A stretch of DNA of 64,000 bases from Patescibacteria group bacterium (GTDB taxonomy: Bacteria; Patescibacteriota; Minisyncoccia; Phycocordibacterales; JACOZG01). A program made the translations under genes and the position numbers. The notes beneath the pieces are model-generated. The model was not told the DNA's origin and searched no databases. It was given only the letters and a program-made list of their open reading frames with translations. Shown in pieces: positions 14,962 through 60,547 of the stretch (position 1 is its first letter; every line of letters begins with the position of its first letter). The DNA is taken from NCBI GenBank assembly GCA_038064435.1, contig JBBTTC010000003.1:9205-73204 (forward strand), in the 5' to 3' direction.

Positions 14962-14993
14962 ACGGGTTGCTCTACCAACTGAGCTAACCGCGC
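14918..14993 (-). tRNA. tRNA-Val (anticodon TAC), CCA encoded
   Basis: RC: GCGCGGTTAGCTCAGTTGGTAGAGCAACCCGTTTACACCGGGTAGGCCGGGGGTTCGAGTCCCTCACCGCGCACCA; anticodon loop TTTACAC. Confidence 0.85.
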
Positions 14994-41879: not shown

Positions 41880-42007
41880 TAACTCGATCTTAACTTTATT
41901 TTTAGCCGTTTTTTGGATTGAGGCCTGTGGATAAGGTCTGATCAGATTATGGCTAGAGAGTTGACTATTTATCAGCATTCACGGCCTATCCACTGCTTAT
42001 CCACAGG
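41880..42007. promoter_or_regulatory. DnaA-box cluster / candidate oriC element between dnaN and dnaA
   Basis: Perfect TTATCCACA at 41997..42005 (+) and 41926..41934 (as TGTGGATAA), 7/9 box cTATCCACt at about 41986; AT-rich tract 41881..41920. Confidence 0.6.
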
Positions 42008-43378
42008 TTATACCTCGTTGTACAGACGGTTACGGATTTGCTCTAATTCTTGAACTAAAGAATTATTGCTCTTCAAGTCCTGTTTGATCTTATCATAGGC
42101 ATGAATAACCGTGGTATGGTCGCGGCCGCCCAACTTTTGTCCAATATAGGGGTAGGAACTATTGCAATCCTCACGCAAGATATACATTATCATCTGGCGT
42201 GGCTTAACCACCTCCTTTTTTCGGGTTTTGTCATAGAGCATACGCTCGTCAATATTGTAAAAGTCGGCCACGACACTGGTGACATTTTTAATTGAGACAG
42301 TTTTTTGCGGTTTAATGTTGTTTTTTAGTAAACTTCTCACCTCCCCCATATTCAGCTCGCGTTTTTTAAGATAGGCCTGGCAGACCACGGCATTAAGTGC
42401 GCCCTCTAGTTCGCGGATATTCTCCTGAACCACGGTGGCGATGTATTCGATTATTTCATCTGGCAAGGAAAAGTTAAGACTTTGGGATTTAGATTTAAGA
42501 ATAGCCAATCGTGACTCAAATTCGGGCTTGGAAATACCAACGATCATGCCGCCTTCAAAGCGCGATTTTAGGCGATCTTCCAAATTGGGTATAAATTTTG
42601 GTGATTTGTCAGACGAAAAGATGATTTGTTTGTTATTCTCGTAAAAATTATTGAACAAGTGGAACAATTCGTCTTGGGTTCGATCTTTATTAGCCAAAAA
42701 TTGCGTATCGTCCATGATTAAAACATCGTATTTGCGATATTTTTCCTTAAAACCGTTAGTTTTGTTGTTTAAAACCGAATTAACGTAATCAATCGAAAAG
42801 CGTTCAGCGCTAACGTAGTAGATTTTTTTATTGGCATTAATTTTCTTAAGATGATTGCCGATCGACTGGATTAAGTGGGTTTTACCTAAACCAGTTGGCC
42901 CGTAAATAAAGAGCGGGTTATAGACCATGCCGGGATTTTTAACTACGGCTTGCGAGGCGGCATGGGCCAACTCGTTAAAAGTGCCAACCACGAAGGAATC
43001 AAAGATGTATTTAGAGTTAAGGTTATCGTCTTTGTTGATATACAGATCGTTGAGCCCTAGTTGTTGGTTAAGTGATGGTTTTTCTCCCATCACCTCTTCT
43101 TTGGTCGGTGATTTAGGCTTATCGTCATTGGTTTTTTGGATAATATACTCCAAACTGCGCACCTCGGGACACAAATTACGAATGGTTTTTATAATCGACA
43201 AATGGTATTTGCTGGCCAGCCATTCTTTAGCGAAGGAATTAGGCACACCAACGTACATCACGCCAGCTTCCTGTTTAATAATATTGGTATTACGGAACCA
43301 AGTACCGAAAGTAGCACGAGAAATTGTTAATTCAATCTCGGTTAGCACATCAGTCCACAATTTTTTGTGGTCAGTCAT
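42008..43378 (-). CDS. dnaA: Chromosomal replication initiator DnaA
   Basis: AAA+ YNPLFIYGPTGLGKTHL, VLIMDDTQFL, C-terminal DnaA-box-binding domain. Confidence 0.9.
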   Translation of the reverse strand: MTDHKKLWTDVLTEIELTISRATFGTWFRNTNIIKQEAGVMYVGVPNSFAKEWLASKYHLSIIKTIRNLCPEVRSLEYIIQKTNDDKPKSPTKEEVMGEKPSLNQQLGLNDLYINKDDNLNSKYIFDSFVVGTFNELAHAASQAVVKNPGMVYNPLFIYGPTGLGKTHLIQSIGNHLKKINANKKIYYVSAERFSIDYVNSVLNNKTNGFKEKYRKYDVLIMDDTQFLANKDRTQDELFHLFNNFYENNKQIIFSSDKSPKFIPNLEDRLKSRFEGGMIVGISKPEFESRLAILKSKSQSLNFSLPDEIIEYIATVVQENIRELEGALNAVVCQAYLKKRELNMGEVRSLLKNNIKPQKTVSIKNVTSVVADFYNIDERMLYDKTRKKEVVKPRQMIMYILREDCNSSYPYIGQKLGGRDHTTVIHAYDKIKQDLKSNNSLVQELEQIRNRLYNEV

Positions 43379-43486: not shown

Positions 43487-43621
43487 ATGTCGCAAACTTA
43501 TCAACCCAAAAATCGCAAACGCAAGCGCACTCACGGTTGGCGCCGGCGCCAGTCTACGGCCGGTGGCCGGCGTGTGGTGGCCGGCCGCCGGCGAATTGGC
43601 CGCCGGCGCTTGACGGTCTAG
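43487..43621 (+). CDS. rpmH: 50S ribosomal protein L34
   Basis: [44 protein letters not shown] (44 aa; below ORF-track cutoff), divergent from dnaA. Confidence 0.85.
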
Positions 43622-43636: not shown

Positions 43637-43984
43637 ATGTTGCCTCTGGCCCTAAGATTGGGGCGCGATCAGGCTACACAAGTGCTTAAACTTGGCCGAC
43701 CGTGGTCGGGCGCCTACCTCTCGGCCCGCATCTTGAGGTCGAGTGACCATTTGTTGCCCTCGCGTTTTGCTTTTGTTGTTTCTAGTAAGAACGTCAAGCG
43801 CGCCGTTGACCGCCACCAACTTAAGCGTCGTGGACGTTCGATTATCATTAACCAGCGCGAGCATCTAGCCCCCGGCTACTGGGCGATGATTTTCTTCAAA
43901 GCCAGTGCGCGGGAGTTAAATTTTGCCAGTTTAGAAAAAGACATGCTAAATTTATTGACGGCGACCAAGTTATTAATTAAATGA
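43637..43984 (+). CDS. rnpA: RNase P protein component
   Basis: RLGRDQATQVLKLGRPWSGAYLSARIL...FAFVVSSKNVKRAVDRHQLKRRGR. Confidence 0.8.
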   Translation: MLPLALRLGRDQATQVLKLGRPWSGAYLSARILRSSDHLLPSRFAFVVSSKNVKRAVDRHQLKRRGRSIIINQREHLAPGYWAMIFFKASARELNFASLEKDMLNLLTATKLLIK

Positions 43985-44721
43985 TTGCCAATCTTTTTAA
44001 TACGATCTTTTTTGAACCGCTATACAATGCTCTGGTTTTTATCAGTAGCGTTTTGCCGGGCCATAATCTAGGTTTGGCCATAATTATCTTAACCTTGATT
44101 GTCAAACTCATTCTTTTTCCCCTCTATCATCGGGTGGCCACTACGCAAAAAAAATTAAAAACCCTTGAGCCGGAACTAAAAAAAATAAAAGATGAACACC
44201 GCGATAATCGTCAACGTCAAGCGGAAAAAATAATGGAGCTCTATCGTCAGCATGGGCTTAATCCCCTGTCAGGCTTATGGATTATGCTTATCCAGATTCC
44301 CATTCTGCTGGCCTTATTTTGGGTGTTTCGCGATAGCGTGACCTTGCGGCCAGAATTGTTGTATTCGTTTGTTAAGCCGCCGGCGACGCTCAACAGTTAT
44401 CTCGGTTTTATTGATTTAACTCAAGCCAGTTATTTGCTGGCTATTCTCACTGGCGCGGCCCAATGGTTGCAAATGCAACTCTCCATTCCTCCTTTGCCGG
44501 CATCCGATCCCCAGACGGCTAAGGGCTTTAGTCAGGACTTGGCCAAAAGTATGAATATTCAAGCTCGGTATGTTTTACCCGCGATGATGCTAGTTTTTTC
44601 TCTCGGTTTACCCGGAGCCATTGCTTTGTACTGGCTGGTGGGTAGCTTATTTACTATCGCCCACGAACTTTTAGTTAAGAGGCAGACGAAGGCGCTTTTA
44701 GGGGCAGAGACCATAAACTAA
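43981..44721 (+). CDS. yidC: Membrane protein insertase YidC (short form)
   Basis: AIIILTLIVKLILFPL...KKLKTLEPELKKIKDEH...QAEKIMELYRQHGLNPLSG. Confidence 0.85.
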   Translation: MIANLFNTIFFEPLYNALVFISSVLPGHNLGLAIIILTLIVKLILFPLYHRVATTQKKLKTLEPELKKIKDEHRDNRQRQAEKIMELYRQHGLNPLSGLWIMLIQIPILLALFWVFRDSVTLRPELLYSFVKPPATLNSYLGFIDLTQASYLLAILTGAAQWLQMQLSIPPLPASDPQTAKGFSQDLAKSMNIQARYVLPAMMLVFSLGLPGAIALYWLVGSLFTIAHELLVKRQTKALLGAETIN

Positions 44722-45883
44722 GATCAGCTCGATGGCGGAAGAAAAGCTTTTGGCCATCAGTACTAATTAGTAAATCAATCATATCTAAATTGCTGGTCGC
44801 GGTTGGCAAAGACAGTAAGTCGGATGCGCCGGTGATGGCATCAACCGACCACACTTGATCGCTGGTGGTGAGGTCGCCGCGGTGCCAATCACCGAGTGGC
44901 CAACGGTCCGGCACAGCACAAATTAGGCCGGCGGAATTATTTTGCCAGCGGCATTTTGGTGGAATGGTGGCAATGGCCAGAACTGAAGTGGTTTGTTTTT
45001 TGAGGTCGTAAATATAGGTGACCGGACCCTGGCCCGAATTCTGGCTGTAGATAATTTTTTCTCCATCCGGACTGATTAGGGTCTCTAGGCCGCGGATGTT
45101 GCGCAAAATGGGACGCAGTTCTTTGGTCGTTGGGTTTAGAAAATAAAGAAAGCCGTTCAAATTGCTAGCTGGTTTGGTGGTGAGGGCAATAATTTTCTCG
45201 GTTGGCCAGTCTACCAACCAGTCGTCAAGTGGCGAAGAGAAAAGCGTTTGACCGTCATTTTGGTCCGCCGGCCACTTGGTTGCTACACCCTCGGTTCCAG
45301 TTGTGCCAGACTGGAGAAAAAAAGCCTTATCGCCGGCAAAGGTCCAGTTAGTGACGTTGTTGCCAAGACGAACGGGTTCGCGCGCCGCCTCGTTCCGATC
45401 TAGCGGCCAAGCGGCCAGCCAGGCGCTCGTGCCCGTTTCGGTGTGTTGACGCATAAAGAGACGCAATTCGTTGGATGTGGTTTGCCAGACTGTTTGTTGA
45501 ATGCCGGGGAGAGTGAAATTTGATAAACGTTCCGGCTGGCCATCTGGGTTGAGAGTATAAACGTGGCCCGTGGCGCTCTCTTGGTAAAAAATTTGTTGGC
45601 CCATGGCGGTAAAACCACTAATAGGGCCAGAAATCAATTGCTGGGGTCGACTATTGTCGTCGGAAATTGGTTCGGTTGAATCACCGATGATTGGTGTTGG
45701 CGCAAATGCTTCGGGCTCGGCAATGTTTCCACTAGAATCGATCGGAAAGGCGTCACTGACCGTTTCGTCCTCTGGTGAGTTGGCTGATGGTGACGATGAA
45801 TTGTTGCCGCCCAGCCACCAGATTACACCGAGAGCCGCTAGTGGCAAAAGAATCAGTACGCCAACAATAATTTTTTTATTCAT
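44675..45883 (-). CDS. Secreted beta-propeller (TolB/PD40-like repeats) protein; first gene of T4SS-like cluster by position
   Basis: Signal peptide MNKKIIVGVLILLPLAALGVIW; repeated ISPDGEKIIYS / STDGQKLFF PD40-like motifs. Confidence 0.45.
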   Translation of the reverse strand: MNKKIIVGVLILLPLAALGVIWWLGGNNSSSPSANSPEDETVSDAFPIDSSGNIAEPEAFAPTPIIGDSTEPISDDNSRPQQLISGPISGFTAMGQQIFYQESATGHVYTLNPDGQPERLSNFTLPGIQQTVWQTTSNELRLFMRQHTETGTSAWLAAWPLDRNEAAREPVRLGNNVTNWTFAGDKAFFLQSGTTGTEGVATKWPADQNDGQTLFSSPLDDWLVDWPTEKIIALTTKPASNLNGFLYFLNPTTKELRPILRNIRGLETLISPDGEKIIYSQNSGQGPVTYIYDLKKQTTSVLAIATIPPKCRWQNNSAGLICAVPDRWPLGDWHRGDLTTSDQVWSVDAITGASDLLSLPTATSNLDMIDLLISTDGQKLFFRHRADLSLWSLPLKAPSSAS

Positions 45884-46314
45884 TTGCCAGATGTTAGATC
45901 GGGGAAGCTCAAATTTACCAAATCAGGATTGATTTCGTACAAAATCAAATAAGCGGCCAGGGCGAGCAAGAGGCCCAGCACAATGCCGGACATGCGGCCT
46001 TTAACATCAGCTTTGACCCCGGGTAAGCCACTGGCGGCATAGCGCACTCCCTCCAGTACCAGCATGACGATGGCGGCCACAATGGTGAAGCTGATCAGCA
46101 CCTTAAACAGACCCTTAAGGTAATCAGTTAAGTTGCTGGCTTGATCGAGGCTGGCAAAGCCGCTGTTGGCATTAGACAGGGCATCATTGGTCGGTGGTTG
46201 ATTATTCGTCGTGCCGAGAGGGACAACGCCGGTGTCATTGGCTGTAACGATGGTGGTGCCCAGGACACCGAACAGAACAATCATTAGAATGACCAACAAT
46301 AGCTTATTAATCAT
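45880..46314 (-). CDS. Small signal-peptide + two-helix membrane protein; VirB2/TrbC-like pilin candidate
   Basis: 144 aa; signal/TM, polar linker, then two hydrophobic helices (LISFTIVAAIVMLVLEGV; IVLGLLLALAAYLILY). Confidence 0.35.
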   Translation of the reverse strand: MINKLLLVILMIVLFGVLGTTIVTANDTGVVPLGTTNNQPPTNDALSNANSGFASLDQASNLTDYLKGLFKVLISFTIVAAIVMLVLEGVRYAASGLPGVKADVKGRMSGIVLGLLLALAAYLILYEINPDLVNLSFPDLTSGK

Positions 46315-47020
46315 AATGCAGAGCGATTTTTTTCTCGGCGGCCTGACGAATGGCCGCGGGATTTTTTACCGCCAAATTAATCTCGGTTTGATCAAATGGC
46401 CCAGCGGCCTCAAAGATCATTAGCCGGCCGCCCCAAAACGGCGAACTGACCACTTGTTTATGGCCGTCTTGCGTTACCGTCCAGTTATAGACCAGCTGAT
46501 TCAGGGCGGAGCGAGAAAAATTAAAAGGTTCGGCCAAGATTGATAGCGACGATTGATCAAGCCGTAAGGAAGAAGCTAGTGCCTGCTGGTAATGTGGTCC
46601 AACGAGGGGCGCGCTGGCGTAAAAAATAACTTGCGGTAAAACTAGATTGATATCAACTCGGGCATCAGTGAGCCGCCGGCCACCTTGATCACTGATGGTA
46701 ACTTTGATTTGGTGACGAGCTAAAGACGGAGCAGTTTGGAAAGTGAGATTGGAGCGGCCACGGCCGGAGAGGGCCGGCAGAGATTTGCCATCCTTTTGCC
46801 AATTAAAATTAAGGTTTGCGCTACCGCCGCTCACCATGGCCACCACCCTCACTTCGCTGCCCGGTACGGCCTGGCTGTGCCCACGGTAAAATGGTGGTTG
46901 ATAGGTCTCGGCCGACCAGAGCAGGTCAACAGTTAAATTACTGCGTTGGGCAAGCGCTGGGGTGGTGACACCGAGCGCCAAACCAATAATTATTAGATTA
47001 ATAATCTTCATTATTGCCAC
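46307..47020 (-). CDS. Secreted hypothetical protein (T4SS-like cluster)
   Basis: 237 aa, signal peptide MAIMKIINLIIIGLALGVTTPALA. Confidence 0.4.
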   Translation of the reverse strand: MAIMKIINLIIIGLALGVTTPALAQRSNLTVDLLWSAETYQPPFYRGHSQAVPGSEVRVVAMVSGGSANLNFNWQKDGKSLPALSGRGRSNLTFQTAPSLARHQIKVTISDQGGRRLTDARVDINLVLPQVIFYASAPLVGPHYQQALASSLRLDQSSLSILAEPFNFSRSALNQLVYNWTVTQDGHKQVVSSPFWGGRLMIFEAAGPFDQTEINLAVKNPAAIRQAAEKKIALHYD

Positions 47021-47348
47021 GAACGATTTTTTCAGCTTTTTGACTAAGCAGGGTGGTAGCTATCGCAATGGTCCAGCCCGGGAGGATGTTTAAAAACGGC
47101 ACGGCTTCGATGAGGGCGGCCACCGCTAGGGTGGCTTGCCGTTTAAATTGCCTTTGCACTATTCCCGACCAGCCACTGACCAGTATAAACCAGACAAAAA
47201 AAGTTAACCACGCTATCACGTCAATCGGAATGGTAAAGAGCGCGCCCGCTCCAGTTAAGCTTAATAAAAATTGAATGGCGTCAAAACATAAAGCCACGGC
47301 CACCATGGCGGCTTTGATAACAAAATTAATGTCGCGCGGTTTGCTCAT
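46998..47348 (-). CDS. Small polytopic membrane protein (T4SS-like cluster)
   Basis: 116 aa, 3-4 TM helices; overlaps neighbours. Confidence 0.4.
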   Translation of the reverse strand: MSKPRDINFVIKAAMVAVALCFDAIQFLLSLTGAGALFTIPIDVIAWLTFFVWFILVSGWSGIVQRQFKRQATLAVAALIEAVPFLNILPGWTIAIATTLLSQKAEKIVRGNNEDY

Positions 47349-49188
47349 TGTTGCTGGCCTGGTTTAGGTCTTGGCGAGCTTTTTTTATAGCCAGAATCTG
47401 CGACGGGTCGGAGGTAATGATTTGGTCTTCGGTGTATGAAGCAATGATCTTCATGGCCACATGTTTGAGACCAGCAAAGAAAATTCCTTCGCCGACCGCC
47501 GACTCAAGCAGGAGATATTTTTCCTCATCGGTGAGCTGGAAAGTTTTTTGCACTAAGTCGATGGAGGCCGGTGATTGCTTGAGGAGCAATTGCAAAGACG
47601 AGTTGGTAATGATGGGCAAGCCGTAATCGGAGCGCAAGAAGTCACCCACATCTTGAGTGATGGTGGCCACGCCTAAATAATATTTGCGGCCGCGTTTAAC
47701 GAGCGAGAAAAGGAACGAAGCTGTGTCTTTGGACTTCATCATCCACCAAGCCTCATCAATTACCAACAGGCGTTTCTTGAGTGTGCGGCGGATGGCGTTC
47801 CAAATGTTGTGCATAACAATGTACATAGCCACCGGCTTGAGTTCATCTTCCATGTCGCGCACCGAGAAAACCACAAACTTTTTGTTAATGTCGACATTGG
47901 TTGGCCGGTTGAGAAAATTTGCCCAAGTGCCTTGGGTATATTTGAGCAAGCGTTGCGCCAGCGAAGCACCACCCTCCATGCCAGCCAAGACCAGCTCTAG
48001 GTCGGAGAGTAGGGGCGCCGGCTTGTGGCCAAAGTCGGTGTCGGCGGTGATATCTTTTAGAGCGTAAGTTTCGGTAATGGCGCTGTCGATAATGGCATCC
48101 TCTTCCGTCGTTAGTCCGCCCAACATGATGCGAAACAGTCCGACTAGGTTGATGATGTGTGAGCGCAAAACATCGGCCGGCGATTCGTCCTCGCGAGGAA
48201 AAGGTAAATCAAACGGATTGATGTGATGCTCGGAGGTGAGGGAAATATTAAAATAACGTCCGCCTACCGCCTCGGCCAAAAACTCGTATTCCCGCTCCGG
48301 GTCGATGACGATCACGTCAGTGTCGAACATCAAGCTACGCAAAATTTCTAGCTTGGTGGTGTAGGATTTGCCGGCGCCAGACTTGGCAAAAATCACCGAG
48401 TTGTAATTTTCTAGCGAGAAGCGATCAAAGAGCACTAGACTGGAATTGTGGCGATTGATGCCATAGAGAATACCGCGATTGGACGTTAGGTCAAAAGAAA
48501 CAAAGGGAAATAAGCTCGAGAGCGGCGCCGAATTGAGCTTGTAGTTAATTTTTAGCAAGTCATTGGCCGCTGGCAAAACGCTTTTAAAACCCTCGGCTTG
48601 TTGAAACAAAGCCGGCTTGAGATAAACCAGCTTGGCGTCAAGAATAGATTTAATTTCCGCCTCGGCGCGGTCAAGCTCGTCGTCGCTTTGGCCGTAGATA
48701 GTGATGTACAGGCCAACATCAAAAATGCGCTCGCGCGCTTGCTGGAGTGAGTCGCGGAGTTTCTCGATGTCTTCGTGGGCGGTGTCGAGCACCGGATCGC
48801 GCACCATCCCCCGTTCTTCCTTCAGACTAATTTGGCTTTGCACCTCGGCCACCTTTTTTTCCAACTGGCGCAGGGCGATGGTGGTGTCGATCGGGTGAAT
48901 AAAAATGGAAACGTCAAAAACCTTGTCCAAATTAATGACGGGTGAAAACCAATCATCAGTTAGAAACCGCGGATAAGAAATAACAAAAAAGGTGCGAGCT
49001 AGCTTATCGCCGAGATGGAGACGGCGGGGTGTGATCTCCAGAGCCGATGGCGCGACAATATCTTTGAGCTCTAGGACGCCCAATTGGTAAATATCTTTGG
49101 GTAGAATTGGTGTGAGATTGCCGGCCGATGTGGTTTTTGCTTTCGAGAAGATCGCCATGTTAAACGGCCGTGGGCGCGGCGACCTCAC
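47326..49188 (-). CDS. virB4: VirB4/TrbE/PrgJ-family T4SS ATPase, ATPase portion
   Basis: Walker A VIFAKSGAGKSYTTK, VIVIDPEREY, Walker B LLVIDEAWWMM, TQDVGDF. Confidence 0.8.
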   Translation of the reverse strand: MRSPRPRPFNMAIFSKAKTTSAGNLTPILPKDIYQLGVLELKDIVAPSALEITPRRLHLGDKLARTFFVISYPRFLTDDWFSPVINLDKVFDVSIFIHPIDTTIALRQLEKKVAEVQSQISLKEERGMVRDPVLDTAHEDIEKLRDSLQQARERIFDVGLYITIYGQSDDELDRAEAEIKSILDAKLVYLKPALFQQAEGFKSVLPAANDLLKINYKLNSAPLSSLFPFVSFDLTSNRGILYGINRHNSSLVLFDRFSLENYNSVIFAKSGAGKSYTTKLEILRSLMFDTDVIVIDPEREYEFLAEAVGGRYFNISLTSEHHINPFDLPFPREDESPADVLRSHIINLVGLFRIMLGGLTTEEDAIIDSAITETYALKDITADTDFGHKPAPLLSDLELVLAGMEGGASLAQRLLKYTQGTWANFLNRPTNVDINKKFVVFSVRDMEDELKPVAMYIVMHNIWNAIRRTLKKRLLVIDEAWWMMKSKDTASFLFSLVKRGRKYYLGVATITQDVGDFLRSDYGLPIITNSSLQLLLKQSPASIDLVQKTFQLTDEEKYLLLESAVGEGIFFAGLKHVAMKIIASYTEDQIITSDPSQILAIKKARQDLNQASNNEQTARH

Positions 49189-49801
49189 CCGGGTTAAACA
49201 TTTTGAAATAAATCTCGACCAGTTCTTCCGTACCCAAAGTGGCTACTCGCACGCCAAAGCGGCTTAGGCCTTGGTTCACCACTCCCACCCGCTGTTCCAG
49301 CTGTGATCGCCGTTCGTCAAATTGATCTGTTGGGCCGCCCGTCGCGGCAGATCCCCTTTTGTTGAGTATTCGTCCTAGCCAACCACTTTTGACCGGCATG
49401 ATGGGCGGGTCATATGGTACGACCACGAAGAAGTTTTTGGTCATGATGTCGGTGGAGTCGGTAAAGTTTTTAATGAACTCGACGTACTCGCGAGTTTGGA
49501 TCTTGATCAGGTCATTAACCTGATCCTTGCCTAGGCCTTCCAGCATGGCGATGTAGGGCTTGATGTCGAGCTGGCGGGACTGAATAAAGAGTTGAATATG
49601 AAAATCGAGAGAATTGAGAAAATTTTGGTATTGAAAAATGATCGCCTCCTTCTCTTCCTCCGACTTGAGGGCGAAGTTAAGAGATGAGGCGATCAAAATT
49701 ATGCGCAGGCCACCGTTTTTTAAAACGACGACACCATCGCGGATCTCGGCGATCTCGACAAAATCTTGAGTGGGTCTACTTTCTACCGCCATGTTCCACA
49801 A
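49160..49801 (-). CDS. VirB4-family N-terminal domain as separate ORF (overlaps ATPase ORF by 29 nt in a different frame)
   Basis: FVEIAEIRDGVVVLKNGGLRIILIASSLNFALKSEEEKEAIIFQYQNFLNSL resembles VirB4/TraE N-terminal (CagE_TrbE_VirB) region. Confidence 0.55.
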   Translation of the reverse strand: MWNMAVESRPTQDFVEIAEIRDGVVVLKNGGLRIILIASSLNFALKSEEEKEAIIFQYQNFLNSLDFHIQLFIQSRQLDIKPYIAMLEGLGKDQVNDLIKIQTREYVEFIKNFTDSTDIMTKNFFVVVPYDPPIMPVKSGWLGRILNKRGSAATGGPTDQFDERRSQLEQRVGVVNQGLSRFGVRVATLGTEELVEIYFKMFNPGEVAAPTAV

Positions 49802-49830
49802 ATTGTAACATGACTGGCCACTTTTAAGAA

Positions 49831-50232
49831 TCAGTTAATCTTTTCGCGAACATCGAGACTCCAAGATAGATCTTTGAGTTTGCTTTGCGACAGCTTGGGG
49901 ATCAGCACTGGCCGTTCGGCGTTGACGAGCGCCTCGGCGGTGACGATTTTTTTGTCCGTTTTTTTCCATAGATATAGTTTGTGGTTGGCTAAATAGCGTG
50001 TGGCGGCCTCGGCCAAAAAGATCAAGGGTCGATTGTTGACTTTGTAAAAAGCCAAACCGAGGGCGCTGACGGCGATGGCCATCATGGGGATAACGGCTAA
50101 ATAAAACGGCAAGTAAGCGTAAGCGAGAAAAGCTCCGCCGGCTCCGCCGGCCAAGTAGACGAACTGCTTGAAGGTTAGCGGCCCGAAAATCTTATCTTCA
50201 ACTTCAATAAATTGTGGGACTTGGAAGTTCAT
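49831..50232 (-). CDS. PrgI-family / VirB3-like small membrane protein
   Basis: MNFQVPQFIEVEDKIFGPLTFKQFVYLAGG N-terminus followed by two TM helices; immediately upstream of VirB4 as in Gram-positive T4SS. Confidence 0.6.
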   Translation of the reverse strand: MNFQVPQFIEVEDKIFGPLTFKQFVYLAGGAGGAFLAYAYLPFYLAVIPMMAIAVSALGLAFYKVNNRPLIFLAEAATRYLANHKLYLWKKTDKKIVTAEALVNAERPVLIPKLSQSKLKDLSWSLDVREKIN

Positions 50233-50705
50233 TTAATGTTGGGATCAACTGATTCGTGGTAGGGGTCGGGCAGATCCACTTCTTCGCGCGGCAAACGGAA
50301 GAGCTTAGACATTTTTTCTTCAAACACGCCGGCTTGGCCGGCCGGAGCTTTGGCGGCGGCGGGCCCGGGCGCGACGGGCGGTGGCGGCACAACGTGGAGT
50401 TTTTTCAGCGACTCTTGAATTTGGGCAAAAATCAGACTATTAACGTCGGCAGTGATGGTGGCCACCACCGCCGGCGCGAGGCCAAGGTCACGCGCCACGT
50501 CGGCACCGTAGGTGGCTAGTGGTTCCAAGCCCATCATTACTAAGGCTGTGCGATCAGCCAAGAGACCAAGCTGATCCAGATGTAGATGATGCTTGAGGCC
50601 GATCTCGCCCAAAGCACCGGCCAAATCCAGCTCGGCAATGGCCTCCTTAACATCCTCCGGCAATCCACTAAACGCTTTAGCTAATTGTTCATTGGTGTGT
50701 TCCAT
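50229..50705 (-). CDS. Hypothetical protein (T4SS-like cluster)
   Basis: 158 aa, Pro/Ala-rich segment. Confidence 0.35.
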   Translation of the reverse strand: MEHTNEQLAKAFSGLPEDVKEAIAELDLAGALGEIGLKHHLHLDQLGLLADRTALVMMGLEPLATYGADVARDLGLAPAVVATITADVNSLIFAQIQESLKKLHVVPPPPVAPGPAAAKAPAGQAGVFEEKMSKLFRLPREEVDLPDPYHESVDPNIK

Positions 50706-50707
50706 GA

Positions 50708-52633
50708 TTAGGTAGTTGGCGTTGGAGGAGCGGGTGGTGATGTTTGGGCGGGTTTTCTCATGCTGTCGAGGCGTTCTTCTAGGGTGGCAATCTTAGTGGC
50801 AATGTCTCTCGCTGCTGGAGATGTTGGGTCAGAGGTTTCCTCTAGTTCTTTTTTAAGACCGTCGATAATCTCGCCCAATTTTTTGGCATCGACTTTTTTA
50901 TCTCTAATTCTTTTCATGTTGATCCGTTCTTCTTCTGGCAGCGCAACCTCAAATCTCCTAATTACTGTTCCCAAGTGTTGGTTTTTAGCGTCGATCTTTA
51001 GAGCCCCAGTTTCTCTCTCTTTCATTATTTCCTCTTCCTGTTTCAGTTCTTCCTGTTTCTGGGCCATTTTTTGGATGTCTGCTTCGTTCCGGCTGATTGA
51101 TAGATCGTCTATTTCTTTCTTTATTTTATCAATCTTGCGCAAAGAAATTTGATCAGTGGAATGCATCCCAATTCGATCGGCATCAACATCGGACTTTATA
51201 TATTTTTCCACACCTTCTCTAAGTTTAACGCGTTGTTCCGCTGACATTCTGGCGTAGATTTTTTCCGCTGCCTGTGGGTGAAGACGACGGATTGAGTCAA
51301 TGTATTGGGCCAGTTTAACCGGATCATCCTTAAATTCGTCAGCTTGCTTTACCAGCCGATCAACTTTTTGGTCGTATCCTTCTTTGGAACCAAACCCGGC
51401 CTTGGCAACCGAACCAATAGTGTTTTTTAAAGCGAATCCAGCCAATGGGTGTTTGGCCATTTGATCTTTCACCCACTCACTTTCGCCGGCCTTGCGGGCC
51501 AGGCGTCCAATGGTTTCGCGGCCCATTAGGCCAGTGAGGCCGTAGCCGGCCTGTTTGCTCTTTTTGCTCAACCAATTCGAAGCCGTACCGGCCATTTTTT
51601 CTCCCAGACTATTGGCAATAATCAACGAGCCCAGCATCATGGCGATAGCAATGGCAAAATAAATCGAAACAGCAAAGACCCCGGAATCATTTTCGGCTAG
51701 CACGGTTAGGGTGTTGGAACCGAGCAGGTAGAGAGTAAAATAAACGCATAAAAGGTATAGTGGCGCGTAAATAGATTGGCTAAATAGTTTATCTTTCCAC
51801 TGATCAAAATACTTATTTAAGCCGGGTGCGGCGTAAGACAAGAAAGCCAGTGGAGACAGGATTATTAGGGCAATCAAAATAATGCCGCGTTTTAATAATA
51901 AGATTGCACCGACGGCAAAAACGAAAACAGCGAGCAGAATCATAATGGTCGCGCCAGAGGTGGCCGCCAGGGCTTGGGCTGGACTACCGCCGGAGTTGGC
52001 AAATTGTTCTTGTAAATCTAGGCGGGCCATAAACATATCGGTCAACCCTTTGGTTTTATTGGGATTATTTTGGTCTCGGCCAATAATTTGTGAATAAATT
52101 TGTTTAGACGCCAAATTGGTTATTCGGATCGCCTCTTTGGCAATCACGCCGCTAAAGTTGATCAGTAGGGCGATCACAATGACGTTAACCAGCAGCTTTT
52201 TTTCACCGCCGCCAATATTGAGGATCATCCTGATGGCGATGTATAAAATGATAAAAATAAAAAACAGGTTGCTGATGTCGCGCAGGGCTCGCCAGGTTTC
52301 GGTGACCCCGGGACCGTTGGCATATTGATCAAAATTAACAACCGCGAAATTGAGTGAGGCATCAAATCCCCACCCAGCTAGTTTTAGAAATTGCCCAGTT
52401 AGCCAAAGAATTTTGTCGCCAACAAAAAGAATTACCGTTTCTGCGGCTTTAGCCACCCATCCTTGATTTTCTGCCACGGCCTTAGCCTCTTCGGCTTCTA
52501 GTATTGGAGTGGCCGGCTGGTAATAGTCAGGAGCAATTACGGTGTTGAACGGCTCCTGCGCCTGTGTGGTGAATGGCAGAACGGCTGAAATCGCTAGTGT
52601 TAAGATGGGTATCAGTGAAACAATTTTTTTCAT
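50708..52633 (-). CDS. VirB6/TrbL-like polytopic membrane protein with C-terminal coiled-coil
   Basis: 641 aa; signal peptide, at least 6 TM helices in first 400 aa, then charged coiled-coil and PAPPTPTT tail. Confidence 0.5.
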   Translation of the reverse strand: MKKIVSLIPILTLAISAVLPFTTQAQEPFNTVIAPDYYQPATPILEAEEAKAVAENQGWVAKAAETVILFVGDKILWLTGQFLKLAGWGFDASLNFAVVNFDQYANGPGVTETWRALRDISNLFFIFIILYIAIRMILNIGGGEKKLLVNVIVIALLINFSGVIAKEAIRITNLASKQIYSQIIGRDQNNPNKTKGLTDMFMARLDLQEQFANSGGSPAQALAATSGATIMILLAVFVFAVGAILLLKRGIILIALIILSPLAFLSYAAPGLNKYFDQWKDKLFSQSIYAPLYLLCVYFTLYLLGSNTLTVLAENDSGVFAVSIYFAIAIAMMLGSLIIANSLGEKMAGTASNWLSKKSKQAGYGLTGLMGRETIGRLARKAGESEWVKDQMAKHPLAGFALKNTIGSVAKAGFGSKEGYDQKVDRLVKQADEFKDDPVKLAQYIDSIRRLHPQAAEKIYARMSAEQRVKLREGVEKYIKSDVDADRIGMHSTDQISLRKIDKIKKEIDDLSISRNEADIQKMAQKQEELKQEEEIMKERETGALKIDAKNQHLGTVIRRFEVALPEEERINMKRIRDKKVDAKKLGEIIDGLKKELEETSDPTSPAARDIATKIATLEERLDSMRKPAQTSPPAPPTPTT

Positions 52634-52636
52634 AAT

Positions 52637-55600
52637 CTAGCGTGTGATATTCACCTCTTTAATCACCTCCTCGCCCGAGCGCGCGGTGCAGCGGAGTTGA
52701 TAATTAAGCCGCGGCTTGATTAGCAGTTGGCCGTCATCACCACTGGATTGGTAATAAAATTCATAGGCGTTTAATCGTTGGGCGAGAGCGGTGGTGCCGG
52801 TCTGGAGCGCCTCAATTCTCTGACGAAACAGATCCACCACGCGAGTGGCTGTTGGCGGATTAATCTGTCCCCGTCCGCCGACAACGATCGATATTGGTCC
52901 ATTTTGATCGGCGATTACTAGACGGTATTGATCGTCAATGCCGATCGAGCCGGTGATAGCTGGGTTTATTTGTCGTCCATTCGCGAGCATCTTTGGGTCG
53001 GTAATCGCCATCGCCGGTAGATTAATCGTTAATTTATTGGCAACACGCACCGCCGTGATGGATGGTAACTGAATGGGGTGGCGAATAGGTTTTTCGCCAA
53101 TTAGTGACACCGCGTCGCCAGTGGCCAATGACTCGTTCCCTTTTCGTGCTCCCCACCAATGATTGAGCGCCGTGCAGGCGTTGGTGCGGGTGGTTTGCCA
53201 AGCAATTGTGCTGATGTTGGCGATAGGATTGATCAGTGCCTGTTCTAAACTTGGTGTTTGGACGCTCATTATCACAGTTGGTGGTACCGAGCCGGTGGGA
53301 GTGCCAGATTCGCTGGGACTGGTCGCTCGATCAAGCAGGAAGTCGATAATAATTTTTATGAGATTTTCCTGCGACATTTGGTCGGTGTTGGAACGTCGAG
53401 GAAGATTGGTAAATTGATCGAGATCGGATAAAATGTCGGTAATCTCGATGTTTAGAACATTCTCCATTTCACTTGGCGCCACGCCGGTGATTCGTTCCGG
53501 TAGATTGGTGGCTAGGTGATCGCTAATGTTGTTGGCAAAGGTTTGATCTATCCCCGGCAGACCAGTTAGGGTGCCGGGCAAGCCGCCCTCGATGCCGCGA
53601 CGAATGTTGTTAGCCGGCAGTTCGCCTAGTTCTGGCGGGGTCACCGGTTGACCCGAGCTTTTTCCCCAGCCGCTTTTGGGGCAGGGCCCCGGCGCTGGGC
53701 ACGGATCCTCGGTTTCAAAAATGCTGTCGCCGGCCGCGTCGTCGTAGGTTTCCAATCCGGTGTCGGACTCCAATCGCAAATTTTTAACTTGTCGCCCGGC
53801 CACGGCCAGCTCGTCAATGATAAAATCTTCGATCGCTTCGTCTCCTTGTTCGGCCTGACGCAGGGGTGAAGTGACTAGTGCTTCGGTGTATTCACCGATT
53901 GTCGATCCTGGCACCAGAGTTCGCCACTTGAGGCAAAAGCCCTTCGAACTTTTTTCCACGCACTCTCGAATTGGCAGGTAGCCTTGACCCTCGGTTCTTT
54001 CTTGTTCGGCAATTTGTCGGGCCCGACTCTTGGCTTGATCCAGATCGTTGCGGACAATGTTTTCTACGCCACGTGGATTGTTTTTGTCCTGGATAATTTT
54101 GAGCCAAGCATCCCAGCCGCCCTCATTCCAATCGCCGACAAAATCGTCAAATTCCTGTTTGGTAAAATCGGAGGCCAGCTTCTCGCCGTAGGTGGCCGTT
54201 TCTTCACGAGCCAAATTTTCGTGAGCAGCGGCCAGATGCGGATACTTGTTGGTGTCTTGAGACAGACTTTCTACTTGTTCGAGAAAACCGCCACTGGCGT
54301 TGGTGATCGCGTCTTCTACATATTGTTCAGAATCGGTAACATAAAGTGGTTGTTTGTTGTCGCCACTGGCTCCGATTACGGCGGCCGGCATCTCGTAGCC
54401 ACGATTTAGGGTCTCACGAATGAATTGATTTTTATGATCATTCAGAGCGCGTGCTGAGGCCTTGCGACTGTCGGAGTCGAGAGCGAATTCTTTTTCTTCA
54501 AAATTTAGTTGGATGCGGCGGATTGATTTGAGGTGGGTGCAAATTTGAATTTGCAAGTCTTTAATTTGCGACGTGAGTTCTTGGGTTTGTTCTTCGATTG
54601 TTTTGATCTGGCCAGTGGTATCGCTGATGTTTTGAGTGGCGTTAAGCAGGCCGCCAGTCTCCACCACCGGCACGGCCAGCGCTGATGCGGCCAGACCGGT
54701 GGGGTCGTTGAGCAAATTGCCCCCGGCCGCCAGTGGGCCGAGAATGCTATTTGGTCCGCCAGCCGAAAAGCCGTTAACCAATTCACTCATATTGCCAAAA
54801 CCGCTTTGCGACATCAGGGTGTCAAAAGTGCCACCGGCATTGGCGACTTGGGCCAAAGTGCCGGGCAATTCGGACAAATTGCCCAGGTCGCCAATGCTAT
54901 TAAAGGCCTGACCAAAACTGTCAAAACCACCAACAATGTCATCCAGCCCAGCCCCGAGCTTACTGGCTTGGCCCAAAACATTGGTCATGTCGCCCAAATT
55001 GTTGATTGAACCGGCCGAGTCGAAAAAGTTTTTAAAGTTACCGAATCCGCCCAAAATATCACCGGCCCCACCCCCCAAATTACCTAATTGGCCGAGCATG
55101 GCTGGCATACTGGATAGTCCTCGAACGTTACCCAAGCCACCGAGCAAGCTGTTAAAACCACCAAAGCCGCCAGTGAGTTGGCCAAAGGTCGCGTTCAGGT
55201 TTTTAAATTGCCCGAAAGCGCCAGCTAAGCTATTTAGATCACCTATTTTCCCAAAGCTACCAATCAATCGGTTGAAACCGCCAGCTCCTCCCAATATGGC
55301 ACTGAAGTTGCCACCCAGATTATTAATCTGACCGAAGGAATTAGCCAAGCCCATTAAATCGCCGGTACCATTAATCTGGACCAGCAGGTTGCGCAGACCA
55401 TTTGAGCCGCCGAGTACAACATCGAAACGGCCACCCAGATTTTGCACTTGGCCAAAAACTTCAGCGAGACCACTCACATTTTGAATACGAGTTAGATCAG
55501 AAACGGTTTGAAAACTGGCAGATACTTGCCCCAGATTACCGCCCATCGCTTCGATTTCACCAACAAAACTAGTCAAGTCCCGAGAAAATCCGTTCTGTGT

Positions 55601-56077
55601 TAAGGCCAGACGCAAACTGCTAAGTGAGCCAAAGCTATTAAGCGATCGATTAAGAATACTCGTTTGGGCCTCGGCTACCGGAGCCAACCACGATTGGGGG
55701 TTAAACCAAGCCAGTTTTGATGTGGTGTGACGAAAACTAATATCTACTTCATCCAATATGCCTGAAGGTGGACCACCGGGCTCGGGCGTGCGAATGGTGG
55801 CCGGCACCAGCGGCGCGGGATCAATATCGGGGTTAACGACACCGCTTGAATCGCCGCCCAGGAGGTCGGTTGGGTTAAAGCCGCCGCCTTGCTCGGCTTG
55901 GCAGGCTTGCTCGTCTTGTTCCAGCTGGCTGTAATCTTGCCGGCGCTCGCCCAATGCTTGTTGAGTGGGACCACTGCCACCACCGCCGAGTGACTGGAGA
56001 AATGTCGGCGTTACGGCTTGCCCCCAACTTGGCGCCAGTAGGGTGGCGAGAGCGATCAGGCTGACAATTTGTCTCAT
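52637..56077 (-). CDS. Giant secreted protein (1146 aa) with about 12 tandem Gly-rich about 20-aa repeats
   Basis: Signal peptide MRQIVSLIALATLLAPSWGQA; repeats of form GxLxxLAxxFGQ(I/V)xNLGGxFxxxLGGxGGFNxL between aa about 170-470 (DNA about 54650..55600). Confidence 0.6.
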   Translation of the reverse strand: MRQIVSLIALATLLAPSWGQAVTPTFLQSLGGGGSGPTQQALGERRQDYSQLEQDEQACQAEQGGGFNPTDLLGGDSSGVVNPDIDPAPLVPATIRTPEPGGPPSGILDEVDISFRHTTSKLAWFNPQSWLAPVAEAQTSILNRSLNSFGSLSSLRLALTQNGFSRDLTSFVGEIEAMGGNLGQVSASFQTVSDLTRIQNVSGLAEVFGQVQNLGGRFDVVLGGSNGLRNLLVQINGTGDLMGLANSFGQINNLGGNFSAILGGAGGFNRLIGSFGKIGDLNSLAGAFGQFKNLNATFGQLTGGFGGFNSLLGGLGNVRGLSSMPAMLGQLGNLGGGAGDILGGFGNFKNFFDSAGSINNLGDMTNVLGQASKLGAGLDDIVGGFDSFGQAFNSIGDLGNLSELPGTLAQVANAGGTFDTLMSQSGFGNMSELVNGFSAGGPNSILGPLAAGGNLLNDPTGLAASALAVPVVETGGLLNATQNISDTTGQIKTIEEQTQELTSQIKDLQIQICTHLKSIRRIQLNFEEKEFALDSDSRKASARALNDHKNQFIRETLNRGYEMPAAVIGASGDNKQPLYVTDSEQYVEDAITNASGGFLEQVESLSQDTNKYPHLAAAHENLAREETATYGEKLASDFTKQEFDDFVGDWNEGGWDAWLKIIQDKNNPRGVENIVRNDLDQAKSRARQIAEQERTEGQGYLPIRECVEKSSKGFCLKWRTLVPGSTIGEYTEALVTSPLRQAEQGDEAIEDFIIDELAVAGRQVKNLRLESDTGLETYDDAAGDSIFETEDPCPAPGPCPKSGWGKSSGQPVTPPELGELPANNIRRGIEGGLPGTLTGLPGIDQTFANNISDHLATNLPERITGVAPSEMENVLNIEITDILSDLDQFTNLPRRSNTDQMSQENLIKIIIDFLLDRATSPSESGTPTGSVPPTVIMSVQTPSLEQALINPIANISTIAWQTTRTNACTALNHWWGARKGNESLATGDAVSLIGEKPIRHPIQLPSITAVRVANKLTINLPAMAITDPKMLANGRQINPAITGSIGIDDQYRLVIADQNGPISIVVGGRGQINPPTATRVVDLFRQRIEALQTGTTALAQRLNAYEFYYQSSGDDGQLLIKPRLNYQLRCTARSGEEVIKEVNITR

Positions 56078-56745
56078 AAATTAAAACTCGGATGCAAGTT
56101 AATTTTTTCCTCACTCGAAAAAACAATCTCGCGATCGAGGAAATACTGATTAATTTTAGCAAATATTTGCCAAAGTTCACTGTAATGTTGGGGATAGATT
56201 CGAGCGTTCTCTAGAGCCAGGATTGGCTGATCGAAAATTTTCTCCATAGCAAAATCAAGTTCTGCCAGCCGAAGTATGGTATTTATTAATTGCAGGTGGA
56301 TATCAGCGGCGTCTTCTGGTGTCACCACGTTCACTAGTTGCCCAACGGCTTGTTGTTGGCGAAGCCGTTGGGCAACAATCATCTTAGCTGCTAGCGCGTC
56401 GTCATTTTTGATGGCGCGCACGGTTAGCGCCATTTCGTTTTGCCACTCTGGTTCGGCATAAAATCTCAAGATGTTAGCTAGTTCTAGCCCATAAGCCCGA
56501 ATGGCCGAGGGCTGAGTGGTGGCTGAAATTGTGATGTCGCTCGGCGAATATTGCCAAGCCGGTTGGGATGGTGTTGGCGCAGTGATGAGCGGTGCTGAAT
56601 TGTTGGCCCGAGCCACTAAGCTGATCAGTCGAGTATCGTCGGGCGAAAGTTTGTTGGCTACGCCACCGAGATACCACAAAAAACCCATTACGCCCACGGC
56701 CACCAACAGTCCGCCCGCCAGCAACCACATCGTTACCCGAAACAT
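56074..56745 (-). CDS. Membrane-anchored hypothetical protein (first gene of T4SS-like operon by position)
   Basis: 223 aa, N-terminal TM MFRVTMWLLAGGLLVAVGVMGFLWYL. Confidence 0.4.
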   Translation of the reverse strand: MFRVTMWLLAGGLLVAVGVMGFLWYLGGVANKLSPDDTRLISLVARANNSAPLITAPTPSQPAWQYSPSDITISATTQPSAIRAYGLELANILRFYAEPEWQNEMALTVRAIKNDDALAAKMIVAQRLRQQQAVGQLVNVVTPEDAADIHLQLINTILRLAELDFAMEKIFDQPILALENARIYPQHYSELWQIFAKINQYFLDREIVFSSEEKINLHPSFNL

Positions 56746-56791: not shown

Positions 56792-57133
56792 GTGAAATCA
56801 ATATTGTTGGCCGTTCTCTTTTCCTTATTACTAATTGTGGTGGCGCATTGGCAGAGTCGGCAGTCACAGGCGGCCGGCTTTTTGCCGTTTGGTGGACGTG
56901 TGGCCACAGCGCTCCCCTGTTGTAATGGTTATATGATCACGGTTACCGGACCGCGCCCGGGTAGTTTCCTTTTTGGTCCCGGTTCGGTCGCGTATAAGAA
57001 TTACCAACACCTAGTTCCAGGGTCAAACGTGCTTGGTATTGCCTCACCGGGTGGTTTTTGCCAGAGCGTCTTTGGGCGCTGTGCGCCCATTCCCGTTAAT
57101 GGAACCATACTCAAAATTGGCAGCTCGCTTTAG
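56792..57133 (+). CDS. Small secreted Cys-containing protein (hypothetical)
   Basis: 113 aa, signal peptide, 5 Cys. Confidence 0.35.
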   Translation: MKSILLAVLFSLLLIVVAHWQSRQSQAAGFLPFGGRVATALPCCNGYMITVTGPRPGSFLFGPGSVAYKNYQHLVPGSNVLGIASPGGFCQSVFGRCAPIPVNGTILKIGSSL

Positions 57134-57173: not shown

Positions 57174-57262
57174 ACCACTAACTAGTTTCTGGGGGTGCCT
57201 TGGGGAAAGGGGGAGAGGCCCCGGTTGTTGTCTTAAATGACGCAGCCGGGGCTATTTTTTTA
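57174..57262 (+). ncRNA. Candidate small RNA (about 90 nt) between consensus promoter and intrinsic terminator
   Basis: Transcript ...gggggtgccttggggaaagggggagaggccccggttgttgtcttaaatgacgcagccggggcUAUUUUUUU; terminator hairpin gccccgg/ccggggc at 57218..57252 + T7. Confidence 0.35.
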
Positions 57263-57692
57263 TCTTGTCGCCAACTTTAAGGCCAAAACGTTCAATCAAA
57301 CCGGCGTTTATTTCTAAAACATACTTGATTGGTGTGGGCGGTGAAACGGTGTTGGGGTAGCTGGCCGGCGATAAATTGGGGGTGATGTGGACAATCTGCC
57401 AATTGTCGTTCAGCCAAATGATGTCGAGCGGGAAATTCATATCTTTCATCCAAAAGGCCGGCTGTTCTAGCGCAGGAAAAACAAAAAGCATTCCCCCGCC
57501 GATGGCTAGTTGGTCCCGACCGCTAAGGCCGCGCTCGCGCGCGGCCGGCGTAGTTGCCGTTTCGACCGTAATTTTATGACCGTTTAAATTTAATGGAGTG
57601 ATTGAATTGAGCGATCGATAGCCAACAATCAAACCCAGAATCAGCCCAAGACCAATTCCAAGCTTTATATTTTTTGTGCTAAACATAACCAC
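57252..57692 (-). CDS. DUF192 (COG1430) family protein
   Basis: 146 aa; N-terminal TM, conserved MLFVFP...FWMKDMNFPLDIIWL core. Confidence 0.6.
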   Translation of the reverse strand: MVMFSTKNIKLGIGLGLILGLIVGYRSLNSITPLNLNGHKITVETATTPAARERGLSGRDQLAIGGGMLFVFPALEQPAFWMKDMNFPLDIIWLNDNWQIVHITPNLSPASYPNTVSPPTPIKYVLEINAGLIERFGLKVGDKIKK

Positions 57693-58438: not shown

Positions 58439-58440
58439 GT

Positions 58441-60357: not shown

Positions 60358-60547
60358 AGGGCTGATTCTACTATAAATTACTCGCTTTCATCTTATCCAC
60401 AGACTACCGGGAGATGCCTTGCTTGGTCGCCGCTGGTGGTTATAATAGACAGCACTCGGCTTGACGGCACGGATGAAGTTTTCGGGAAGTCTGCTTATCT
60501 GAATCCGGCTTATTTTTTCAACACTTTTTGATTATTGTCGTCGATAT

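Follow-up and report, generated by a model that had tools for sequence, protein, structure and literature searches.

Type IV secretion systems (T4SSs) of Patescibacteria are the closest described relatives of the locus treated here, a gene cluster at positions 44675-56745 of a 64,000-nucleotide stretch of contig JBBTTC010000003.1 (assembly GCA_038064435.1, Patescibacteria group bacterium), which in its whole length we call the window. The system as such is already known, its missing relaxase, its TrsD protein and pilins and its closeness to dnaA, dnaN, rnpA, rpmH and ksgA having been published (PMC12102498, PMC10633639, PMC12857230). In the sections of their work that bear on it, Quinonero-Coronel et al. 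2025 (PMC12102498) found the VirB4 of Patescibacteria to be monophyletic and nested in mating-pair formation class FATA (MPF-FATA); TrsD was the commonest accompanying protein, alongside PrgI/VirB3, VirB6 and VirB2-like pilins (PF18895, PF04956), relaxases occurred in 103 of 3035 genomes as against VirB4 in 2417, coupling proteins lay mostly far from virB4, and the surroundings of virB4 in Paceibacteria were rich in the five housekeeping genes named above. The same sections propose import of DNA or macromolecules as the function. As described in the relevant part of Wang et al. 2023 (PMC10633639), transposon-insertion sequencing showed that T4SS genes including pilins (SEML1_0006-0019) are essential for epibiotic growth of Southlakia epibionticum, and its coupling-protein homologue and comEC are given as not essential (PMC10633639, via the corresponding statements in PMC12102498 and PMC12857230). 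With moderate confidence, we read the present locus as a vertically inherited T4SS that lies near the origin, belongs to the Patescibacteria clade in the form found in Paceibacteria (Parcubacteria) and serves an epibiotic lifestyle, and we take the clade to descend from the MPF-FATA conjugation machinery of monoderms.

In its composition, the locus agrees with the Patescibacteria-clade T4SS in having VirB4, a separate TrsD, PrgI/VirB3, a putative VirB6, a PF18895 pilin and no relaxase or coupling protein nearby, and in lying on the chromosome beside the same housekeeping genes. It differs from the system of S. epibionticum in having one pilin gene where the latter has a six-gene array, and from the clade generally in that its genome belongs to the small minority with a MOBC relaxase adjoining a coupling protein; moreover, conserved genes of these systems that had remained grey can here be named as p237, p402, the p1146 core, p158 and p116. 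With the MPF-FATA systems of monoderms (pGO1 Trs; pCF10 Prg/Pcf) it shares a CD1110-family VirB4, a TrsD-like protein as in pGO1, and PrgI, and, as in these systems, no outer-membrane core proteins were seen in the window (the NCBIfam families CD1110, for VirB4, and CD1115, for VirD4, are named for Clostridioides difficile loci). In contrast to them, the operon is without a coupling protein, relaxase, origin of transfer (oriT), VirB8-like or VirB1-like gene and occupies a fixed chromosomal site, not a plasmid or an integrative and conjugative element (ICE), and it includes a VirB2-like pilin, which the monoderm conjugation systems do not have. The T4SS is most likely not a self-transmissible conjugation system: no coupling protein, relaxase or oriT is linked to it, its location is not that of a mobile element, and the nearest such functions lie 33-36 kb away on a separate element. 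Helicobacter pylori ComB and the Ced system of Sulfolobales likewise function without a relaxase or a coupling protein, and ComB retains VirB2-, VirB3-, VirB4- and VirB6-like parts. However, ComB has outer-membrane parts that have no bearing on a monoderm, ComEC-dependent competence can be separated in S. epibionticum from the essentiality of the T4SS, and we obtained no match to a Ced-type ATPase (CedB NF041017, 34.9 bits against a cutoff of 700; CedD NF053655, 13.3 bits against 600).

Parts of the T4SS operon

The cluster consists of 11 minus-strand open reading frames (ORFs) that overlap their neighbours or are separated from them by at most about 30 nt, a tight packing that looks like a single operon. 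In the order of transcription they encode p223, p1146, a VirB6-like protein (641 amino acids), p158, PrgI (133 amino acids), a 213-amino-acid protein, VirB4, p116, p237, a pilin of 144 amino acids and p402; that is, PrgI/VirB3, a VirB4 split in two, a VirB6-like protein with weak profile matches, a single pilin of VirB2 type and six accessory proteins. None of the 11 ORFs is disrupted, and the G+C content of the operon equals that of its surroundings. A first-pass annotation, made from the sequence alone, had described the block as encoding a PrgI/VirB3-like protein, VirB4, a VirB6-like protein, small pilin-like proteins, a secreted beta-propeller and a 1146-residue repeat protein, with no relaxase and no coupling protein. 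The coordinates and strand of its ORFs proved right and both PrgI and VirB4 scored above the cutoffs of their families (PF12666 and NF045971), but it had overlooked p237, p158 and p223 and had not noted that VirB4 is split. The absence of a relaxase and of a coupling protein from 44675-56745 was borne out by Pfam and NCBIfam searches, and a Pfam search of the window proteins found no integrase in or beside the operon. An Rfam scan of the window returned tRNAs only, and a promoter and terminator scan of the operon gave nothing informative. Counts among relatives refer to 80 loci from species-representative genomes, which were compared with every window protein; the per-gene counts by profile hidden Markov model (HMM) have denominators of 57-58 loci, and flanking genes were counted only where the flank sufficed.

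The ATPase ORF (47326-49158, minus strand; 610 amino acids from the ATG at 49158) scored 364.7 bits on NF045971, the NCBIfam VirB4-like ATPase of the CD1110 family (cutoff 325), but only over profile positions 185-732, and matched P-loop_TraG (90 bits) and AAA_10 in Pfam; its closest solved structure is 4AG5, the C-terminal domain of Thermoanaerobacter VirB4 (E=1e-42), and it carries both a Walker A (KSGAGKS) and a Walker B motif (LLVIDEAW). The 213-residue TrsD-like ORF that precedes it (49160-49801, minus strand) covers positions 3-116 of the same NF045971 profile, matches VirB4_plasma at 30 bits and TrsD NF041427 at 21 bits, and is joined to the ATPase ORF by TAA-C-ATG. Since the junction has this form and the two ORFs match complementary profile positions, we conclude that VirB4 is encoded here as two polypeptides, the shorter being its detached N-domain. 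That the split is a frameshift or marks a pseudogene was ruled out by the TAA-C-ATG junction, by the length of the VirB4 homologues and by the presence of a TrsD-like ORF of about 210-220 residues before virB4 in 79 of the 80 loci. VirB4 has more than 8000 homologues; identity among the top 120 is 79-89%, and most of these have about 600-625 residues (range 579-625). Named organisms among these 120 are Patescibacteria only (such as Vogel-, Nomura- and Paceibacterota), the rest being an unclassified 'bacterium', and the clade placement of VirB4 rests on these nearest neighbours.

Two membrane proteins accompany this motor. PrgI/VirB3 (49831-50232, minus strand), a small protein, reaches 43.5 bits on PF12666 (cutoff 27) and is present in 76/80 loci at a median identity of 51% by tblastn. 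The VirB6-like protein (50708-52633, minus strand) is polytopic, with a signal peptide and at least five hydrophobic segments, and a long charged stretch extends its C-terminus; profile HMMs found it in 56/57 loci, and 2/32 of its homologues match TrbL, the best at 6e-5. The VirB2-like pilin (45880-46314, minus strand) itself, with 23.4 bits on PF18895, falls just short of the cutoff of 26.6, and among its syntenic homologues (n=22) PF18895 is matched by 20 and TrbC/VirB2 (PF04956) by 4. It shows a signal peptide, a two-helix hairpin and a conserved INP motif, its single-sequence model places helices at residues 59-94 and 102-128 with low confidence (predicted local distance difference test score 63), and it is found by profile HMM in 55/58 loci. 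Of the two small proteins that had been called pilin-like, this one kept the assignment through the PF18895 matches of its family; the other, p116 (46998-47348, minus strand), had no pilin, Pfam or PDB match even with its family profile. Hydropathy indicates three or four hydrophobic segments in p116, residues D23, E81, P84 and P90 are conserved, and its HMM matches, in 28/58 loci, always lie directly after virB4.

The remaining accessory proteins are for the most part exported. p237 (46307-47020, minus strand) carries a Sec signal followed by Ig-like repeats, its family profile matching Hoc (3shs) at E=4e-5 and also phage Ig-like decoration proteins; there are two repeats here and apparently a third in most relatives, which are about 320-350 residues long. 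A homologue search with the p237 sequence returned p237 alone, and the profile HMM found the protein in all 58 loci. The length of these homologues had raised the idea that p116 and p237 are one split gene, which we rejected, as a third Ig-like repeat accounts for the extra length and the homologues of p116 have ORFs of their own. p402 (44675-45883, minus strand), N-terminally anchored and encoded by the last gene of the operon, is likewise present in 58/58 loci; its family profile matches TolB (7mx5) at E=2e-4 and PD40 was found in 2 of 43 members, and it is thus probably a TolB/PD40-like beta-propeller, in line with the secreted beta-propeller of the first reading. Its 3' end overlaps that of yidC by 47 nt. 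p1146 (52637-56077, minus strand) is a surface protein with a Sec signal, degenerate G/N-rich repeats of about 40 residues (residues ~190-420), a coiled coil (485-545), a conserved core and a variable C-terminus; the repeats for which it had been singled out exist at the protein level, but its gene contains no tandem repeat in the DNA. In relatives the family ranges from 309 to 1353 residues, and one homologue has a Phage_lysozyme domain. The core (residues ~571-750, about 180 residues; 53828-54367, minus strand), encoded directly upstream of VirB6, comprises a helical bundle and a beta-hairpin with two invariant cysteines; it matched no Pfam family and no known fold, yielded 682 representative clusters at E<=1e-3 and was found by profile HMM in 53/57 loci. 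The soluble p158 (50229-50705, minus strand) was aligned with its family and shows a conserved N-domain of about 105 residues, a variable Pro-rich linker and, in nearly all homologues, a C-terminal DPY(R/H)E, through which p158 might dock to a partner, for example an ATPase; the family has no Pfam or PDB match and occurs in 43/80 loci by tblastn. The product of the first gene, p223 (56074-56745, minus strand), is anchored by a single N-terminal hydrophobic segment (residues 8-26), the remainder being a probable helical ectodomain; it matched nothing in Pfam or NCBIfam and has homologues at the same position in 13/80 loci by tblastn. The Ig-like p237, the TolB-like p402, the p1146 helical domain and p158 are four previously unannotated core parts of the system.

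These exported products also bear on whether the T4SS delivers effector or toxin proteins to the interior or the surface of the host cell, in the manner of Bordetella Ptl or Brucella VirB, which have no coupling protein. That protein-exporting T4SSs can do without one is stated in the pertinent parts of PMC12102498 and PMC12857230, Wang et al. (PMC10633639) put forward protein export or an alternative role, and several Sec-signal proteins of the operon could be substrates or tip factors. However, Pfam and NCBIfam searches of the operon and its neighbours recognised no effector, toxin or immunity pair, and the exported products of the operon are conserved, structural-looking parts found in nearly every relative; we therefore regard protein export as unlikely, though it is the better of the alternatives to our reading.

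Chromosomal position and rates of evolution

The operon borders on dnaN (40700-41812) and dnaA (42008-43378), both on the minus strand, and on rpmH (43487-43621), rnpA (43637-43984) and yidC (43981-44721) on the plus strand, so that the claimed adjacency to dnaA-rpmH-rnpA-yidC was found to be correct. The spacer between dnaA and dnaN holds two perfect DnaA boxes (41926-41934 and 41997-42005), and the GC skew changes sign at ~37-40 kb; the spacer is the probable replication origin, oriC. On the other side, within 57252-61537, follow DUF192, ksgA and uvrD on the minus strand and, beyond uvrD-ksgA and 3.8 kb outside the operon, a LysM-LysM-M23 peptidase on the plus strand (60548-61537), a candidate for the VirB1-like cell-wall hydrolase role that is absent from the operon; the same LysM-M23/uvrD/ksgA order occurs in a relative (L159). 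Among the relatives, the order uvrD-ksgA-operon-yidC/rnpA (opposite strand)-dnaA-dnaN recurs, with dnaA within ~10.5 kb of virB4 in 53/55 loci, yidC in 54/55 and ksgA in 43/54, and, single outliers apart, the HMM-detected operon genes keep their place and strand. Because of this fixed order with housekeeping genes, the cluster is not an ICE or a prophage. The first-pass annotation, which had proposed a chromosomally conserved position, would have been contradicted by a cluster lacking VirB4, PrgI and VirB6 HMM matches or lying in an ICE or prophage; we found neither.

The conservation of the individual proteins differed widely. VirB4 identity exceeded DnaA identity in 54/54 genomes, by 20 points on average, and it exceeded the identity of DnaN by 38, of KsgA by 31 and of YidC by 36 points; ranking the loci by VirB4 identity inflates the VirB4 values somewhat, but too little for gaps of such size. 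TrsD and PrgI are conserved about as well as DnaA, whereas the exported and surface proteins of the operon are only 24-40% identical, even where VirB4 reaches 85%. This pattern fits an indispensable motor combined with surface parts under diversifying pressure and would thereby support a role in host contact. It also bears on the idea that the cluster is a decaying, non-functional remnant of an integrated conjugative element, for which one could cite its conjugative ancestry, visible in the CD1110-family VirB4, and the lack of a relaxase, coupling protein, VirB8 and VirB1 in the operon. Against this stand the intact, tightly packed ORFs with their Walker motifs, synteny across dozens of species, a constraint on VirB4 above that on DnaA and the unremarkable G+C content, by which we consider the idea effectively refuted and its residual probability negligible.

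Three further observations concern the neighbourhood. Adjoining dnaN, at 38529-40418, lies a gene for a secreted 629-residue PKD-domain protein that has no counterpart in any of the 80 loci and is thus a lineage-specific surface protein at the origin. Between the operon start and DUF192, a plus-strand ORF (56792-57133) encodes 113 residues with a signal peptide and several cysteines; it occurs in 5/80 loci and has no family match. In L159, a TraT-like protein and Lnt (apolipoprotein N-acyltransferase) are encoded between ksgA and the T4SS operon (5526-7988 of that locus), both of which are absent from the window.

A mobilizable element in the same window

About 33-36 kb from the T4SS operon, beside a tRNA-Val gene, the window contains an element (8792-14993) with relaxase and coupling-protein genes. 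It carries a 97-nt hairpin (8792-8888, plus strand), 44 nt upstream of the relaxase gene, whose DNA fold has -28.9 kcal/mol (z=-7.1). Folding each sequence separately, we found the hairpin in 13 of 15 related elements with compensatory changes in the stem; RNAalifold on MAFFT alignments of the hairpin missed the long stem, indels having put the arms out of register. In two element loci (L093 and L108), aligned with the 13 others, homology starts exactly at the hairpin loop, the left arm being replaced by unrelated DNA, and many related contigs begin at or near the hairpin, which suggests a recombination or nicking point, or else an assembly breakpoint. The hairpin is a candidate oriT of the island. 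The MOBC-type relaxase candidate itself (8932-9795, plus strand) scores 94.8 bits on Replic_Relax, PF13814, the MOBC relaxase family (PMC5357655), and has relatives at 72 metagenome loci. After p206 (9875-10495, plus strand), which lies between the relaxase and coupling-protein genes, comes a VirD4-type coupling protein fused to AlbA_2 (10498-12486, plus strand), with matches to TrwB_AAD_bind (42 bits), TraG-D_C (29 bits) and SLFN_AlbA_2 (64.5 bits), with conju_CD1115 (49.6 bits) as best NCBIfam family and with GASGSGKT as Walker A; no N-terminal transmembrane segment was obvious in it by eye. A small membrane ORF also lies within the island. The last ORF (13459-14961, plus strand) is chimeric: its first 262 residues come from a second coupling-protein paralogue, and the rest is the C-terminal half of a large serine recombinase, comprising zinc ribbon and coiled coil without the catalytic domain. 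The ORF ends inside the tRNA-Val gene (14918-14993, minus strand). The question raised earlier, whether ATPases at 8.9-15 kb might act as coupling proteins, thus led to one VirD4-type coupling protein and to the second paralogue, truncated as it is in the chimera.

Relatives carry intact counterparts: one (L097) encodes a 443-residue coupling-protein paralogue and a 514-residue recombinase, another (L121) a 499-residue recombinase ending at tRNA-Asn. The module of relaxase, p206 and the two coupling proteins recurs in at least 15 metagenome loci, in varied contexts and at different tRNA genes but without mating-pore genes; several of these loci have an intact large serine recombinase, and their cargo includes defence-type genes. 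In L157, 138-nt direct repeats (32-169 and 11173-11310; 96% identical), 11,141 nt apart, flank a complete element. It encodes a serine recombinase, a relaxase, two coupling proteins, a methylase of Dam type and an ATPase of the AAA_15 family, and close by on the outside is a paralogue of this ATPase with 73% identity, an arrangement that looks like tandem accretion of two elements. No flanking att repeats were found around the island of the window. The island is thus a degenerate representative of a mobilizable-element family that lacks a mating pore of its own, and its G+C content of 0.36-0.47, lower than that of the flanks, fits this reading. The island interrupts a type IV pilus neighbourhood (pseudopilin gene at 7881-8531, pilM/pilN at 15968-17616), and upstream of it, at 2020-5667, are genes for a PilB-type ATPase (T2SSE), two response regulators and a PAS histidine kinase, annotated via an identical locus (L081).

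The island resembles the class 8 streptococcal integrative mobilizable elements (Coluzzi et al. 2017, PMC5357655) in its PF13814 relaxase, its VirD4-type coupling protein and the absence of mating-pore genes; its relatives also share with them a large serine recombinase, and island and class 8 elements alike have a large inverted repeat ahead of the relaxase gene. It differs in having two coupling-protein paralogues, one of them fused to AlbA_2, in the loss of the integrase catalytic domains and in its Patescibacteria host. Because elements of this kind carry no mating-pore genes, they would need a T4SS in trans. A further likeness is presumably that to the TraX/TraW/oriT2 module of pAD1.

This element bears on a different view of the operon, namely that the T4SS is mainly a conjugation or mobilisation pore between Patescibacteria cells, to which elements like the 8.8-15 kb island supply relaxase, coupling proteins and oriT in trans. 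All the features just described would suit it: a MOBC-type relaxase next to a coupling protein with CD1115 as best family and a second paralogue, the recurrence of the pore-less module, in several loci with an intact recombinase, one element bounded by direct repeats 11.1 kb apart, and a hairpin with compensatory changes ahead of the relaxase gene. CD1115 and the CD1110 of the VirB4 family are, as we assume, neighbouring locus tags of one Clostridioides difficile conjugative transposon. Moreover, relatives of the coupling protein that are 78-80% identical are named for another class (Curtissbacteria and Levybacteria), although taxon labels of short binned contigs are unreliable. However, relaxases are rare beside VirB4 in the published counts (103/3035 genomes against 2417, in the section of PMC12102498 concerned), and in S. 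epibionticum, as far as the cited passages go, the T4SS is essential and the coupling-protein homologue is not. A VirB4 conserved beyond DnaA at a fixed origin-proximal site would also be unusual for a pore used for element transfer only, and the element in the window is without integrase catalytic domains. We therefore hold it improbable, more so than protein export, that this is the main function.

The first-pass annotation had concluded that the locus argues against conjugation. The cluster itself, with neither relaxase nor coupling protein and at a fixed site, bears this out, but the conclusion is weakened because a MOBC relaxase, coupling proteins and an oriT-like hairpin, belonging to an element that would need a T4SS in trans, occur in the same genome and indeed in the same window. 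We therefore raise tentatively, as a possibility with clearly less than even chances, that the near-universal Patescibacteria T4SS still transfers DNA, as a shared mating pore for small integrative mobilizable elements that move between lineages. Such elements, with a MOBC relaxase, two coupling-protein paralogues, a serine integrase, a 97-nt oriT hairpin and often defence cargo, would then parasitise an essential host-interaction machine, a suggestion that we make equally cautiously. If true, some of the relaxases thought to be missing from the candidate phyla radiation (CPR) simply sit away from virB4.

Proposed working and significance

In the working that we propose for the origin-proximal T4SS, the cytoplasmic VirB4 ATPase acts as the two polypeptides that its genes encode, the TrsD-like N-domain and the 610-residue ATPase. 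By homology and gene order, it would dock on the membrane through PrgI/VirB3 and the VirB6-like protein and, by analogy with VirB systems, would drive the extraction of the Sec-exported VirB2-like pilin and its polymerisation into a pilus or conduit. The conserved p237, p402 and p1146 core, the latter with its variable extensions, would form together with p223 and p116 the part that spans the cell wall and contacts the host; the fast evolution of these five envelope proteins fits diversifying pressure at the cell surface. The whole would function as a conduit that depends on contact between cell and host and needs no coupling protein or relaxase of its own, and we lean towards uptake of host macromolecules over export of effectors. 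As a secondary use, elements equipped only with a relaxase, coupling proteins and an oriT may borrow the T4SS as a mating pore.

Several points weigh against our reading of the locus. The relaxase, the two coupling-protein genes and the oriT-like hairpin in the window leave DNA export possible, and essentiality of the T4SS has been shown only in Saccharimonadia, another class. The VirB6-like protein scored 15.5 bits on TrbL (cutoff 25.9) and 18.7 bits on pLS20_p028, both below cutoff, though its position and topology fit the original VirB6-like call. Foldseek, run with the low-confidence model of the pilin, gave no fold match, and the pilin call accordingly rests on the HMM matches at the family level. 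No VirB8-like or VirB1-like product was found in the operon by Pfam, NCBIfam and, for six accessory families, PDB-sequence profiles (p223 by Pfam and NCBIfam only); the scope here is the 64-kb window, and other T4SS genes may lie elsewhere in the genome. Finally, the T4SS operon with DUF192, ksgA and uvrD (44.7-60.4 kb, minus strand) is transcribed towards the oriC at ~41.9 kb, head-on to the replication fork, the skew being positive to the right of oriC. With respect to dnaA, all syntenic loci share this orientation, and it sits awkwardly with the published argument of a 'super-expressed location', although proximity to the origin may raise gene dosage. We favour host interaction because the T4SS is near-universal, relaxases are rare, the coupling protein is not essential in S. 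epibionticum and the conservation pattern within the operon points the same way.

To the published case our analysis adds a list of conserved, previously unannotated core parts for structural work, figures for how far the ultra-conserved motor and the fast-evolving surface parts differ, and an example of a genome whose relaxase, coupling proteins and oriT-like site lie apart from the T4SS, which tempers the inference that the T4SS cannot move DNA. Of all T4SSs, only that of Patescibacteria is known to be essential to its own cell, and, as already argued in print, it may be how ultra-small epibionts tap their hosts.

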